Shown here in pieces: positions 26,467-51,148 of a stretch of 59,907 nt of DNA. The position numbers and the translations under genes are program-made. The notes beneath the pieces were generated by a model. That model was not told the DNA's origin, did not search any database, and saw only the letters and a list, made by a program, of their open reading frames with translations. Position 1 is the first letter of the stretch. Every line of letters starts with the position of its first letter. The stretch is taken from IMG/VR virus record IMGVR_UViG_3300029906_000160; one strand, 5' to 3'. The stretch is from a virus. Its lineage: Duplodnaviria > Heunggongvirae > Uroviricota > Caudoviricetes.

Positions 26467-26671
26467 TTATACTTATTAAATGAATTTCGAAGTTATCGTA
26501 TCTAAAAAATTCTTCGTATCTCTTTTTAATAATCTTATAAGCTTCTTCGTTAAGTTTAGGTTGTTGTATTTCTTTATTTAAAGTAAAACTTTCATATAAG
26601 TTTTTACATCTAAAATCTAATCCTCCAAAATGTCAGATTAAATAAAATACAATAGTATATGTTTTAGTCAT
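26453..26671 (-). CDS. Hypothetical protein, 72 aa
   Basis: MTKTYTIVFYLIW(TGA)HF...; fills the gap and overlaps both neighbours. Confidence 0.6.
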
Positions 26672-26975
26672 CGTATTCTATTATATGATTAATAGTTTCT
26701 TCATCATAGTAATAAGAATCTGTATAAATAAATTCAAAATTACCATAATATAAAGAACCTTTTAAAGAAATCCAATCTTTTGTTTCTGGATTATAATAAT
26801 CTTCACAAAAATCTATTTCCCATCCATTAGGATCCCAATCTGAAATTTTATGATAACCTTGTTCTTTTAAGAAATCATCATAAATACAAAGAGGAGCAAA
26901 AGGGCAAGATGTTATATTATGTGTTAGCTTAAATTCATTAAAAGCTATAATAATTTTATTTAACTGCGTTTCCAT
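26664..26975 (-). CDS. Hypothetical protein, 103 aa
   Basis: Track ORF trimmed to the METQL start just after the pnk stop. Confidence 0.65.
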   Translation of the reverse strand: METQLNKIIIAFNEFKLTHNITSCPFAPLCIYDDFLKEQGYHKISDWDPNGWEIDFCEDYYNPETKDWISLKGSLYYGNFEFIYTDSYYYDEETINHIIEYDD

Positions 26976-26976
26976 A

Positions 26977-27863
26977 TTAAAAATCTCCATAATACACTTG
27001 ACAAGATAATAAACCTTCTGAGCGTTCCATATCAATTACCTTTTGACGATCATCAAAGACTGCTATACAATAATATTTGTTGTATATTTCTGATTCAAAC
27101 AGCTCTTTTTTAATTACTTCATCTGGACGATAATCCTTCTCTTTTCGCATATAAAGCTGATATGGAATTCCAACATTATCGTTAAGCCATTTAGCTGTAT
27201 CTTGACGACATTGTTCTGTTCCTTCTCTACCTGAGAAAAAGATTATGTCTACAGATCCACTAAGAATTCTAAGCAAATCTATGAGAGGATCATTAGGTTT
27301 ATCTGCAAGAACTCTAGTTAAATCGTAAGGATTTCTACCTCCATTTAAGCACAATGTTCCGTCTAAATCGCAAACAATGCATTTTGGAAGAGTTTTATCC
27401 TGTTGTTTTATGTATCTATTATCCAATTTAATATCTTCTTTTAGATACCTATCGTAATAATACTGCTGATAAAATCGTTTGAGAACTTTTTCTCCAACAG
27501 ATCTTTCTCTATTTTTATCTCGTTCAAGAGCTTCTTTAAATGGAATATAAAATTCTTTAAATTCAATAAAGGAATTAGTTTCTTTTGCTAATTTATTCCA
27601 TTTATCTATAGTTTTAGGATTAAGATTTGTTGCGTCAATTATTACATTATACCCTCTTTTAATAGCAGCTCTTACAGAAAATTCTTCAAGATCACTTATA
27701 TAATCTTCCTGAGAGGGAATCCAATATTCACCTCTGCCTTCTCTTAAACTGTCTCTATTAACTATAACCCAATCCAAATTACTTTTAACGAATTTTCGAG
27801 CAAAGGTACTTTTTCCAGAAGCCGAATTTACGGAGGGCCCTGTAATACTAATATCTTAGACAT
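26977..27863 (-). CDS. pnk: Polynucleotide kinase-phosphatase (T4 PseT-like), interrupted after codon 11 by an 8-nt insertion; 292 aa if the gap is skipped
   Basis: MSKILVLQGPP[TAAATTCG]ASGKST P-loop, VNRDSLR, IIDATNL, HAD CDLDGTL, FDDR. Exons 27863..27831 and 27822..26977. Confidence 0.85.
27823..27830 (-). other. 8-nt coding gap TAAATTCG (in-frame stop first) within pnk P-loop codons
   Basis: Seen by comparison with the uninterrupted upstream duplicate at 28874-28918. Confidence 0.8.
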
Positions 27864-27873
27864 ACAGAGCCCT
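27834..27873 (-). promoter_or_regulatory. RNA hairpin covering the pnk start region
   Basis: AGGGCTCTGTA (27873-27863) pairs with TACAGGGCCCT (27844-27834) over 11 bp with one G-U; inner CTAA-GATA-TTAG stem. Confidence 0.7.
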
Positions 27874-27881
27874 CCTAGTAT

Positions 27882-28769
27882 TTAATTTATTTTGTTTCAT
27901 TTTCTATTTAATATCTGTAAATTATTCTTTAGTATAAATTGTTTAAGAAATTGTAAATTACTTTGTTTACCAGTTCTAATGCAAATGGTGTCTGTATTAT
28001 TAATATAATTTATATGAAAATCCATATTAATTTTATTTATTAGACTATTATAAAAATTTTCCCAATTTTTATGTGCTGTTATTGAAACATAAAGTGCGTT
28101 TCCAGATTTGGATATACAACCATCTCCATCAATAATTCCAATAAGTAATGCTAATAATTGTTCTTTTGAATAATTATCAAAACTACTAAAATCGCAAGGA
28201 TCATAAGTTTTTCTATAATTAAATCCAAAAAATTGCATAAATTTTGGAATAGAATTTCTATTAGAAAAAGATATTCTATAGCTTTTTGTAGACTGACGAT
28301 GTTTAATAGCTTTATTATAATTAATATATTCTTTAAATCTTTCTAATTGTTCTAAATCAGATTCTTGTAACCCTAATTCAAATCTAAATTTCGAGAAAGA
28401 TCCATCGGCAAGAATAAATCCAACTCAATAAAAAGATTGTAAAGATAAATCTAATAATTTATCTAGACTATTTTCTGCTACATTATTAGAAGTTATATGT
28501 AGTTCTCCTACTTTAAATTTTCCAGAATTGTTGGAACAAGATAAACATTTTGTATTATGTTTAGTTGCCCAATTTAAATCACTTTTTCTTTTATAATAAA
28601 TTAATTTTCCACATTCTGGACACGGACGATTATATTCTCCAGCTTCGCCTTTTACTAAATCTTTACAATTAGAGCATAAGGAATTTTCTTTTTCTGCTTT
28701 TTCTCAACTTCATTTTTGTTTATATACAATTTCTTTATTACATCTTGGACAAATATGAATATATTCCAT
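27882..28769 (-). CDS. Free-standing LAGLIDADG homing endonuclease with two N-terminal Zn-ribbon repeats, 295 aa
   Basis: CPRC..CSNC and CPEC..CLSC; motifs YWVGFILADG and LLIGIIDGDG; TGA=W. Confidence 0.87.
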
Positions 28770-28826
28770 AAAATTTTTTGTATTAGCAATTAATAAAATC
28801 TTTTAAATTTAAAATCTTTACTAATA

Positions 28827-28858
28827 CAAAGTTAAGTAAAATTTTATTAATTTCCAAG
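28827..28858 (-). promoter_or_regulatory. Bacteroidota sigma70-type promoter
   Basis: CTTG-N20-TAACTTTG upstream of the LAGLIDADG ORF. Confidence 0.65.
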
Positions 28859-28918
28859 GATTTCCATGAAAATTTTTCCACTAGCTGGAGGACCCTGAAG
28901 TACTAATATCTTACTCAT
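28847..28918 (-). pseudogene. Orphaned 5' remnant of pnk (23 aa)
   Basis: MSKILVLQGPPASGK, then unrelated IFMEILGN-stop. The first 15 aa are identical to the downstream pnk copy. Confidence 0.85.
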
Positions 28919-29549
28919 CTTGTTTTACAGATTTAATATAATATTCATATCGTCCCTTATTCTTTTCATAAAACTGATTTCAAATCTGATTTATAAAAGC
29001 AATTCGTCCGTCGACATCAGAATTAGCAATATCCTGATAATATTTGTTTGCTTCTTTAAAGTCAGTAATTTTATGAAAGTCAATTATTTGTTGTGTGAAT
29101 AAAATATCTTTAATAAAATACCAAACTATTTTTGAATCAGTAATATAATTAATAATTGCTGCTTTTCTAATCATTAAATCTTTAATAAGTTTAATTAAAT
29201 CTGTTTTTAGAATTAATTTTACATATTCTTTTTTAATGAATTTTTTATTTAAACAAGCACATTCCCAAGCTGGTATTTTATTATCAAGAACCATTTTAAA
29301 CCAATTCTGAATAAAAACAAACATAAAATCAGAATTTTCATATTTAATATTTTTACGATCGTTTATATATCCAGAATTATATTCATAAGAGAGATATTCT
29401 TCTGGAAGTTCATATTCAGAATCAATTATAACTAAATAATCAATATCACTATCTTTTGTATTCAATCCATAAATAGAAGATTCTCTTTGGTATATGTAAT
29501 ACACTTTAGGATCTTCTATTAAATGTTGAAGAAATTTATTAGTTTCCAT
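28911..29549 (-). CDS. Nucleotidyltransferase-like protein, 212 aa
   Basis: RESSIYG...SDIDY resembles the GS..YG..SDxD Pol-beta superfamily motif. Extended through a TGA to TAA 28911. Confidence 0.6.
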
Positions 29550-48922: not shown

Positions 48923-51148
48923 CTAGTTATTTTCTAGACTTTTATATATTCTTTCCCAATGATATTGTATAGTTCCATCTTCTTGCATTTCGCCTAATAC
49001 AACATCTTTATTACGAAGATGTTCTGGTCTACTACCACATTCTATGAATTTATCATTAGAATTAAATGAAAGTATAGTATTAGAATCATCATCTCTAGTA
49101 AGATAGCCAATAGCGTCTGATTTAGAGCTTAAAACGCGTCCTGTCTTCAATTATGTTATCTTTAAAGTTTTTTATCTTTAAATTCTTACAATTTCTTATA
49201 AGTTCAGCGTACATTTTTAACTTATATTAAGTTATCGGGCACTCTTGGAAGTATTATATTCTCTATATAGAGTTTCAACTTCTACGCGTTACGATTCTAA
49301 AAAGTCGTTACTCTTTTTAGTTATCTCGATATTAGCATACTCTGAATCTACATCAATATTTAAATTATCTTTAATTCATTGTTTAGCCTTTACCGATATT
49401 GTCCGATTATGATCTACGTAATCACTTACATAGACGGCAAAATTATTATGTTCTTTAAAAAAGTTATATTTTGAATATTTTCGTTCTAGATAAATTTTAG
49501 CATCTTTATATATATAATTTAATAATCTAACACTACAAGTTTTATTACATTTTATAGATCAAACATTATCATCATGTCTTTTATCATGATGTCAACTAAA
49601 ATGAATGTTTTCTTTTGATAAAATTTCTTCTAAACTTTTACAAAATTCCTTAGTTCCTACAAAAGATGTACATATGGTAAATCTTTGTTTTTTAGTATCT
49701 GAATAAGTATGTGATAAACATCCATCTCCGTCAAAATATCCTCGAATAAAAGCTGCATATAATCTTTCTGGAAGAATATCTTTTGATGGAAATTTTAAAG
49801 TTAAAGATTTTTTTGGAGTACAACCACATTTAATTAAATCCTCTTTAAATTGTTTATTACTAACATTTATTCTACATCTTCTAATTTTAAAGTCTAAACG
49901 AACACTAGAAGAAGATTTTAAAAACGTTTTAAATTTATTTAAATGTTCTGCATCTAACAATTGTAAAGAAAGTTCAACTTCATTATCTCTTGAACTCACA
50001 GCTCCATCAGCATATAAAAATCCCAACCAATATGCTTTTTCTTCTGAATTTATCTTATTAAATACTGTATTATCAAAAGAAACTGGAGTTGTGTTTCCTC
50101 CATTTTCATTTATTATTTTAGCTAAAGCATTTTTATGAAATCCATATTTTTCTACAAGTTTATAAATTGGGATTCCAGAATTAAAATCATCGAGTAATTC
50201 TTTAATATGTTTCTTTGTTCACACAGAATAATCAAAAGTTCCAGATTTAGGAAAATCTAAGTTTAATAGTTTCTTTTTATTTGTTCATAATGCTGTAGAA
50301 AATCCTAATTCTTTACAACTTTTATTAAAAGAAATTCCATTATAAAAATTTTCAACTAATTGCTTCGCTATATCTTTTGTTAATTTTGTTTGAGATTTAT
50401 GTTCGATATTTTCTATAAAATATTTATCTATTATATATAAATCTACTAATTTTTTATCTAAATTTAGTTTATTAGCTATTTCTGTAGAATTTAATCCTTT
50501 TGTATAATAGCTATTGATGTTTTCTTTTTGTAGTTCAGTTAAATTCATATTTTTTATATTATTATTGATTAACAATACAAATATATGAATTTATTTTTAA
50601 ATATCAAAATAAAAATTTTAACAGAAATAAAATTTACCTAACAGGTCGATTTGCTTGACTGTAACGTCACTATTAGCTATTGCCGCGTCTTTAACGTGAC
50701 AAACTAGTATGATATTAGGAGCACATTTAGCAACAGAATCAATTACTGTTTCCATTGCTTTTCTAAGATATGAATATCCTGCTCCCATACTAGCATCGAG
50801 AACATCATCACCAGTAAACTTGCTACCTGCAGGTGTTTCTTTAAACATCTTAAGGGCAAGAGGTTTAACCATATCTTCAAGAGCAGTTATAGTATCAATC
50901 ACAATAAACTGATAGGGATTTCCAGCCTTTTTAATAGCTTTACAAACTTCTCCAATATCAGAAATTGTTTTACATTCAACCTTCATTGCTTCAATATATG
51001 CATAACCACTCTCCAAATCTAAGATTAAAGCGTTTGGAAGGGATGCTAAAGCTGTAGATTTACCTATCTTACTTTTTCCGAATATAATTAAATTACGTGG
51101 ATCCTGTACAGAAGCAGGAATTTTACTAGTTGGTAATTCTATTGACAT
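48923..51148 (-). CDS. AAA_24/Sak4-like ATPase, join exons 50636..51148 and 48923..49147, 245 aa
   Basis: FGKSKIGKST, LDLESG and VIDTIT motifs. Splicing gives IDLLG|KTGRVLSSKSDAIGY. Confidence 0.88.
49289..50548 (-). CDS. Intron-encoded LAGLIDADG endonuclease, 419 aa
   Basis: AYWLGFLYADG and FIRGYFDGDG motifs. Open with TGA=W to TAA 49289. Confidence 0.87.
50578..50608 (-). promoter_or_regulatory. Bacteroidota sigma70-type promoter
   Basis: TTTG-N19-TATATTTG upstream of ATG 50548. Confidence 0.75.

Follow-up and report, generated by a model that had tools for sequence, protein, structure and literature searches.

Natural programmed bypassing, in which translating ribosomes skip a coding gap, is, to our knowledge, well established only in gene 60 of bacteriophage T4 and its homologues and in the mitochondria of one yeast. 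This study concerns a 59,907-nucleotide (nt) stretch of DNA from a Caudoviricetes phage (IMG/VR record IMGVR_UViG_3300029906_000160; hereafter the window, meaning this whole stretch), in which the kinase gene pnk is broken by a cassette that combines a LAGLIDADG homing endonuclease gene, a second pnk 5' end, and an 8-nt gap that opens with a stop codon. Full-text literature searches turned up no published account of a cassette of this kind, whether in pnk or in crAss-like phages. With moderate confidence, and on the basis of sequence comparison, we propose that a LAGLIDADG cassette was inserted in the P-loop codons of pnk and that ribosomes may hop over the short stop-containing gap, aided by a hairpin in the mRNA.

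The closest described system is the mobile cassette of T4 mobA/gene 60, which comprises a homing endonuclease and a 50-nt bypass (Bonocora et al. 2011, as cited in bioRxiv 10.1101/2022.08.31.505936). The two arrangements are alike in that an endonuclease gene, a gap, and a replacement stretch of the host gene lie in one mobile block, that the gap opens with a stop codon straight after the take-off codon, that it is situated within a few bases of the nuclease site and is considered a safeguard of the carrier against self-cleavage, and that endonuclease-less descendants retain it. They differ in enzyme and target: T4 MobA is an HNH-family enzyme and the T4 target is a topoisomerase, whereas here the endonuclease belongs to the LAGLIDADG type and the target is the Walker A motif (P-loop) of pnk-type kinases. 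The gap measures 6-8 nt instead of 50 nt and can accommodate neither an A-site/take-off stem-loop nor a mini-Shine-Dalgarno sequence; the pnk cassette is therefore regarded as an analogue of gene 60, not as a homologue. In addition, the hairpin abuts the take-off codon here and lies 9 nt upstream of it in T4, the landing codon is often just near-cognate, no nascent-peptide signal is known, and, unlike gene 60, the pnk cassette is known here from sequence alone.

Other systems share single aspects of this arrangement. In Escherichia coli, low-level stop-hopping is described in which a single amino acid corresponds to 9 nt (Weiss et al. 1987; O'Connor et al. 1989). There, a peptidyl-tRNA beside a stop codon re-pairs a few bases further on, which CAG-TGA-CAG and CCG-TAA-CCA relatives of the window cassette match exactly; the E. 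coli hops are synthetic or unprogrammed and inefficient, whereas the pnk arrangement is natural, conserved, linked to a mobile element as well as a hairpin, and extends to hops of 7 and 8 nt that change the frame. The mitochondrial 'byp' elements of Magnusiomyces capitatus are translationally bypassed coding gaps (Lang et al. 2014) that are likewise natural, numerous, and mobile and tolerate imperfect matches between take-off and landing codons. As described there, however, byps are 27-55 nt long, GC-cluster-like, mitochondrial, and endonuclease-free, and their slow A-site codon is an unassigned sense codon. Lastly, in 'fractured genes' a free-standing homing endonuclease splits a host gene, and split inteins carry out the repair (Dassa et al. 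2009, PMC2677866). Here too, a free-standing endonuclease gene interrupts a phage gene in one of its conserved motifs, and the element brings its own means of repair, but there are no intein halves, and the repair would be translational instead of by protein splicing.

Anatomy of the interrupted pnk locus

All features of the locus lie on the minus strand of the window. An earlier annotation made without database searches (hereafter the sequence-only reading) had pointed out that pnk starts twice, at 28918 and at 27863, with only synonymous differences between the two copies, and this was borne out to the base: 8 of 45 nt differ (AGT/TCT twice, CTT/TTA, GGT/GGC, and CCA/CCG), every one of them silently. 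Copy 1 (MSKILVLQGPPASGK; 28874..28918) comprises codons 1-15 of the native 5' end, with its ATG at 28918, and is severed from the remaining pnk by the cassette, the left junction falling after about nt 45-46. Copy 2 (27831..27863; ATG at 27863-27861) is a cassette-borne surrogate of this 5' end and encodes MSKILVLQGPP. Its last codon is the take-off codon CCG (Pro11; 27833-27831), which is followed directly by the 8-nt coding gap TAAATTCG (27823..27830) with a TAA stop at 27830-27828 and the near-cognate landing triplet TCG at 27825-27823. The pnk body (26977..27822; 281 amino acids (aa), with its stop at 26979-26977) resumes at GCT (Ala12) within Walker A (ASGKST), in the -1 frame relative to copy 2. 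Deleting exactly 8 nt after CCG rebuilds Walker A, so the sequence-only reading was also right in placing a stop-bearing insert between Pro11 and GCT and in stating that an 8-nt skip restores the P-loop.

Copy 1 was delimited against copy 1 of five interrupted relatives (L005, L008, L016, L017, and L021; L numbers denote related loci) and against L001, a relative that is 74% identical and has the same gene order, namely, a nucleotidyltransferase-like gene followed straight by an endonuclease-free, uninterrupted pnk (MSKILVLQGPPAASKST). In the window, this upstream gene (28911..29549; 212 aa, with one TGA read as Trp) ends in a stop codon that overlaps the native pnk ATG. Because the pnk of L001 runs uninterrupted after the same upstream gene, copy 1 is taken to be the native start and the segment from ~28873 to 27823 to be an insertion.

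Past the left junction, copy 1 continues into a cassette-derived tail (IFMEILGN and a stop; 28847..28873), which yields a relic open reading frame (ORF) of 23 aa; the copy 1 ORFs of relatives have comparable short tails. The tail is followed by an AT-rich leader of the endonuclease gene (28770..28846) that, as read by eye, looks promoter-like (TTTG ... TAAATTTA), and by the LAGLIDADG gene itself (27882..28769; 295 aa with N-terminal zinc ribbons and four TGA=Trp codons), which lies between the two pnk starts and whose assignment was confirmed by Pfam and PHROG matches. The cassette thus combines the endonuclease gene with a promoter-like stretch ahead of it and a replacement pnk 5' end that is broken after Pro11, with copy 1 left behind as a 23-codon relic.

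Conservation of the gap and the surrogate start

The endonuclease has numerous relatives among public assemblies. Relatives of this junction were gathered via a protein cluster database with contig look-ups, a profile scan of IMG/VR, and looser pattern scans, whose matches were mostly due to chance and were dropped if hairpin and kinase were absent. A direct search for the window cassette in the 'phages' collection gave no match, and IMG/VR gave none with a single endonuclease protein or with the exact 8-nt pattern. Altogether, 25 distinct leader versions of the junction were obtained from dozens of independent phage contigs, with endonucleases that are 46-100% identical among themselves. Wherever the endonuclease is present, a relic native start lies ahead of it. 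In every lineage, the surrogate ORF starts with ATG, runs in frame to the gap stop, and supplies the first kinase beta-strand anew; this ATG overlaps the R-K-W codons at the C-terminus of the endonuclease in most lineages, while in the window and L005 a 1-nt difference moves this overlapping ATG out of frame and a separate ATG serves.

The gap itself has the same layout in all 25 leaders, i.e., a stop codon directly 3' of the take-off codon and 3-5 further bases. The take-off codon is CCG in type A junctions (P-loop QGxP/ASGK, the slash marking the break) and CAG in type B junctions (RGIQ/GSGK). Depending on the lineage, the gap is 6 nt (TGACAG, TAACCA), 7 nt (TAGTCTG, TAAATTG, TAATACG, TAAACTA, TAATCCA, TAATCCT, TAAGTCA), or 8 nt long (TAAATTCG in the window and L005; TAAATCTA; TAAGTCTA). 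Reading resumes in each case exactly at the continuation of the P-loop, and nothing but exact removal of the gap brings back the P-loop that copy 1 and uninterrupted genes have. A cognate landing codon is found in all 6-nt gaps and in some 7-nt gaps (CAG to CAG, CCG to CCA, and CCG to CCT); such pairs occur in all type B junctions (CAG/CAG) and in L016, L158, L264, L165, and L166 (CCG to CCA or CCT). The remaining landing triplets are mostly one mismatch away from CCN (TCG, TCA, ACG, CTG, and CTA). The gap stop fits the genetic code of its phage, being TAA in phages that read TGA as Trp and TGA elsewhere, with L017 as the sole exception. A leader and an 8-nt gap identical to those of the window occur in L005, L006, and L007, which were obtained with other samples and assemblers. 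Since this layout is found again and again in independently assembled contigs from many samples, it reflects neither chance nor misassembly.

A conserved hairpin ahead of the gap

In the window, an RNA hairpin (27832..27875) ends 1 nt ahead of the gap stop. Its 5' arm (GGAGGGCTCTGTA; 27875-27863) takes in an apparent Shine-Dalgarno sequence and the A of the surrogate ATG, and its 3' arm (27844-27832) consists of the L-Q-G-P-P codons, the last ones preceding the break. The stem has 13 base pairs, a folding free energy of -28.9 kcal/mol, and a z-score of -6.7. Across the family, the corresponding hairpins have free energies of -19 to -30 kcal/mol and z-scores of -4 to -7, and they end 1-2 nt ahead of the stop in all lineages.

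Because loop lengths differ, a MAFFT alignment of the leaders left the 5' arms out of register, and covariation was therefore counted from per-sequence folds indexed from the stop. Stem positions -3 to -14 in this numbering are paired in nearly all 25 leaders, with 2-5 Watson-Crick pair types at each position. Compensatory changes are seen, e.g., between the window (5' and 3' arms GGAGGGCTCTG and CAGGGCCCTCC) and L008 (GAGGGCCTTG and CAAGGCCCTC), and between L020 (GGATCCCGC and GCGGGATCC) and L022 (GAATCCCAC and GTGGGATTC); in the latter pair, the 3' arm changes are synonymous, whereas those in the 5' arm replace residues in the N-terminal extension. This covariation points to a hairpin that is selected as RNA. 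The GGAGG that looks like a Shine-Dalgarno sequence in the window belongs to the 5' arm of the conserved 13-bp hairpin. The small CCG/CGG hairpin that the sequence-only reading had suggested is not conserved (L008 has CCG TAAATC TAG), so that the large upstream hairpin is now the proposed stimulator.

Mobility of the cassette and endonuclease-less alleles

Between the window and L005, the phage backbone is 65-77% identical and the cassette 86-98%, with 87% for the promoter-like region, 86-87% for the endonuclease, and a match at 61 of 62 nt for the gap-bearing leader; the leader is thus more constrained than the endonuclease gene. Identical endonucleases are found in Pnk genes that are only 59-69% identical (L036, L037, and L038) as well as in Pnk genes that are 91% identical (L008 and L013), and the boundary of identity is sharp, lying within a few bases past the gap. 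The endonuclease, the spare 5' end, and the gap thus move as one mobile block. This supports the earlier suggestion of a T4-like but smaller endonuclease cassette that carries its own stop-containing gap, the gap being kept in every lineage. Endonuclease-less descendants retain the gap as well. Divergence of endonuclease versus Pnk was also tried as a test of long co-residence, and it failed because the cassette is horizontally mobile. As a separate observation, L027 and L028 both lie on IMGVR_UViG_3300045988_069849 (270 kb) and have 100% identical endonucleases in Pnk genes that are 65% identical; this record represents either two phages joined in assembly or one genome with two invaded paralogues.

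A clade of alleles without the endonuclease (L157, L161, L163, L229, and L236, from different metagenomes) is of particular use for assessing the kinase. Only the last ~25 nt of the endonuclease gene remain and copy 1 is absent, while the leader, the hairpin, and the 8-nt gap are retained, which makes the gap-bearing leader the only start of pnk. The gene is intact over 285 codons and shows 17 synonymous versus 7 non-synonymous changes (170/685 sites; neutrality P = 9e-8), of which 11 and 3, respectively, fall in the kinase part. The purifying selection downstream of the gap that the sequence-only reading had named as a check is therefore found in this clade. Further endonuclease-less alleles with the leader at the native start are L160, L165, L166, L255, and L264. 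The leader of one of these gap-bearing alleles, L264 (MSLIKNSEKNPLK...), is resembled by copy 1 of L016 (about 2357-2440; MSLIKNSTKVPLK...), a likeness that hints at repeated rounds in which a gene is invaded, loses the endonuclease and then the gap, and is invaded again.

Kinase, endonuclease, and neighbouring genes

The pnk body matches HAD_PNKP (1e-41), AAA_33 (1e-13), and phrog_505 (5e-80, from profile position 12), and it aligns with T4 Pnk (1ltq, 1e-30) from residue 13 and with Pnkp1 (4xrp, 6e-43) from residue 22; it therefore starts inside Walker A. Pnk is composed of an N-terminal P-loop kinase domain and a C-terminal HAD phosphatase domain in which the DLDGT motif is present, and only copy 1 or copy 2 can supply the first half of its P-loop. 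The endonuclease matches LAGLIDADG_3 of Pfam (28 bits; cut-off 22.5), LAGLIDADG_WhiA, and the endonuclease family PHROG 4645 (4e-16). Its LADGSF and IDGDG motifs are invariant in the endonuclease alignment, as in a double-domain enzyme with two LAGLIDADG-type motifs.

Four in-frame TGA codons interrupt the endonuclease gene unless they are decoded as Trp. The nucleotidyltransferase-like gene has one such codon, whereas pnk uses TGG only for Trp, and this split between endonuclease and pnk recurs in all relatives that read TGA as Trp. The endonuclease can thus probably be produced only when TGA is decoded.

Among the neighbouring genes, a 123-aa ORF (26664-27035, minus strand) overlaps the 3' end of pnk and matches PHROG 14479 (function unassigned); it is conserved in L001 and L005, where it likewise follows pnk. 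Another, distant LAGLIDADG-type ORF (49289-50575, minus strand; 428 aa with five TGA=Trp codons) is 28% identical over the nuclease part and lies directly downstream of a P-loop ATPase-like ORF (50618-51148).

Proposed mechanism

In the proposed hop, ribosomes would initiate at the cassette ATG, translate MSKILVLQGPP, and pause with peptidyl-tRNA(Pro) on CCG and a slowly decoded stop codon in the A site; in type B relatives, peptidyl-tRNA(Gln) would wait before the stop instead. The 13-bp hairpin, whose 3' arm consists of the codons just read, would refold behind the ribosome and pull the mRNA forward. In T4 gene 60, the 5' and extended stem-loops have been suggested to play such a role, i.e., to drive forward sliding by refolding (10.1101/2024.12.09.627546). 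The tRNA would then re-pair 8 nt downstream at the near-cognate TCG, with a G-U pair at the first position, and decoding would restart at GCT to give the GPPASGKST Walker A and full-length Pnk. No reading other than exact skipping of the gap by the ribosome gives a canonical Walker A in every lineage. We infer the hop, its efficiency, and the part played by the hairpin from this shared geometry.

The gap probably also shields its carrier from the endonuclease encoded beside it, a role that parallels the one reported for MobA. It would break the recognition site in the rebuilt gene in the same way as the insertion junction breaks copy 1: the segment between gap and left junction (GCN-WSN-GGN-AA) is present in both copies, and each copy lacks one flank of the intact site. 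With both recognition sites broken, the cassette would be immune to its own enzyme at low cost to the host gene.

Several points weigh against ribosomal hopping. The landing triplet of the window, TCG, is not a Pro codon and needs a G-U pair at the first codon position, and L021 lands on TTG. In L017 (3392-3463), the gap stop is TAG although the L017 endonuclease gene needs TAG to be read as Gln; this TAG would act as a stop only in the absence of the suppressor. A ribosome whose P site holds CCG still covers the 3' arm of the hairpin, which makes the pulling model speculative. Unstimulated stop-hops in E. coli are described as low-efficiency events. Since the cassette is mobile, an intact kinase beside an endonuclease proves little, as it may reflect nothing more than a recent invasion. 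The selection signal of the endonuclease-less clade is also uneven: 9 of its 17 synonymous changes, and no non-synonymous ones, cluster in L229 in the 19 pnk codons 7-25 just past the gap, which may represent a single recombination or gene-conversion tract from another allele, and without this cluster 8 versus 7 changes remain (hand-estimated P ~0.004).

Alternative explanations

Some of these points lend weight to the view that the kinase is dead, i.e., that the gap only protects the cassette and that no full-length Pnk is made, with at most the phosphatase part being produced from an internal start. The pnk gene of T4 is dispensable on most hosts, the presence of identical endonucleases in Pnk genes that are 59-69% identical means that intact bodies can reflect recent invasion, and in L165 and L166 the leader is ~97% identical while synonymous sites in the kinase are saturated, which fits recent transfer. 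A dead kinase gives no reason, however, for the surrogate ORF, its ATG, the position of the stop, and the geometry of exact restoration to be kept across endonucleases that are 46% identical, for the leader to be better conserved than the endonuclease gene, or for endonuclease-less gap alleles to persist with 11 synonymous versus 3 non-synonymous changes in the kinase part. We therefore regard a dead kinase as unlikely, albeit worth serious consideration.

A frameshift or read-through at a 'shifty stop' is distinctly less probable. It would require a shift of +2/-1 for 8-nt gaps, +1 for 7-nt gaps, and read-through for 6-nt gaps and would produce Pnk with 2-3 extra residues in the P-loop, e.g., GPPNSASGK or GPSVNSASGK. 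Stop codons are known to promote P-site slippage when they occupy the A site, the heptamer G_GGC_CCU precedes the stop in the window, and the gap data imply that the minimal shift would add only about 2 residues in every lineage. This heptamer is nevertheless limited to the window and L005, as the 8-nt-gap relatives L008 (CAA GGC CCT) and L157 (CAG GGT CCT) lack it, and since the 6-, 7-, and 8-nt gaps need shifts of 0, +1, and -1/+2, respectively, a single frameshift, including the -1 slippage on the heptamer that the sequence-only reading had listed, is ruled out. One conserved anatomy would thus demand three separate mechanisms. Moreover, tRNA-Pro is unable to re-pair at +1 (CGU) or +2 (GUA), no conserved or significant structure that could stimulate a shift was found downstream of the gap (z-scores between -1.8 and +0.9), there would be no explanation for the cognate landing codons at +6 and +7, and the product would lack the canonical GxxxxGK[ST].

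Removal of the interruption at the RNA level, either as a group I intron that stretches from copy 1 through the gap or by excision of the short gap and religation, is very improbable. LAGLIDADG genes often reside in introns, the phage has genes for an RNA ligase and Pnk, and the window gap ends in G. Nonetheless, the region 27300-29300 gave no Rfam group I match at E <= 10 (only a chance sRNA match), the non-ORF part amounts to only ~165 nt and is AT-rich and promoter-like, and the 5' exon would end in A instead of U. The terminal G is not conserved either, since the gap ends in A in L008, L016, and L160 and in T in L166. An ORF that starts with ATG and reads into copy 2 is retained in all lineages, although an intron would have no need of it; endonuclease-less alleles have no copy 1 to splice from; and neither a bulge-helix-bulge nor another structure was found around the gap. 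When candidate group I splice sites were tried by hand, no combination of a 5' site after U and a 3' site after G joined the exons in frame. Both a dead allele and RNA-level excision had been put forward in the sequence-only reading, and both come out weakened.

A fractured gene with a split intein was ruled out: no Hint or intein domain was matched by Pfam in the scanned ORFs, and, as read by eye, the copy 1 ORF continues for 8 codons to a stop and copy 2 is the pnk N-terminus. An assembly or sequencing artefact, with the 8 nt missing from the real DNA, can be dismissed as practically negligible, given the identical leader and 8-nt gap in contigs from different samples and assemblers (L005, L006, and L007) and homologous gaps in many other independent contigs.

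Significance

We lean, if only slightly, towards the broader conclusion that the pnk junctions belong to a widespread natural family of programmed short-range 'stop-hops', in which a hairpin would refold at the mRNA exit and the gap would protect its own carrier, and which would be independent of mobA/gene 60.

The annotation of large recoded gut phages is affected, since gene callers truncate or split these kinase genes: the pnk genes of relatives are called as fragments of 163-267 aa, and in L021 the public annotation takes the landing triplet TTG as the start of pnk (from 2443 onward; 281 aa), which hides the break. If ribosomes do hop these gaps, the pnk cassettes would offer a minimal bypass signal, consisting of a hairpin, a slow stop codon, and a near-cognate landing site, with which the drivers of ribosome sliding can be probed. 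They would represent a second natural bypass family after T4 gene 60, with an independent origin that involves another endonuclease, another host gene, and a gap of 6-8 nt, and the pairing of homing endonuclease and bypass would then be a recurrent evolutionary solution.

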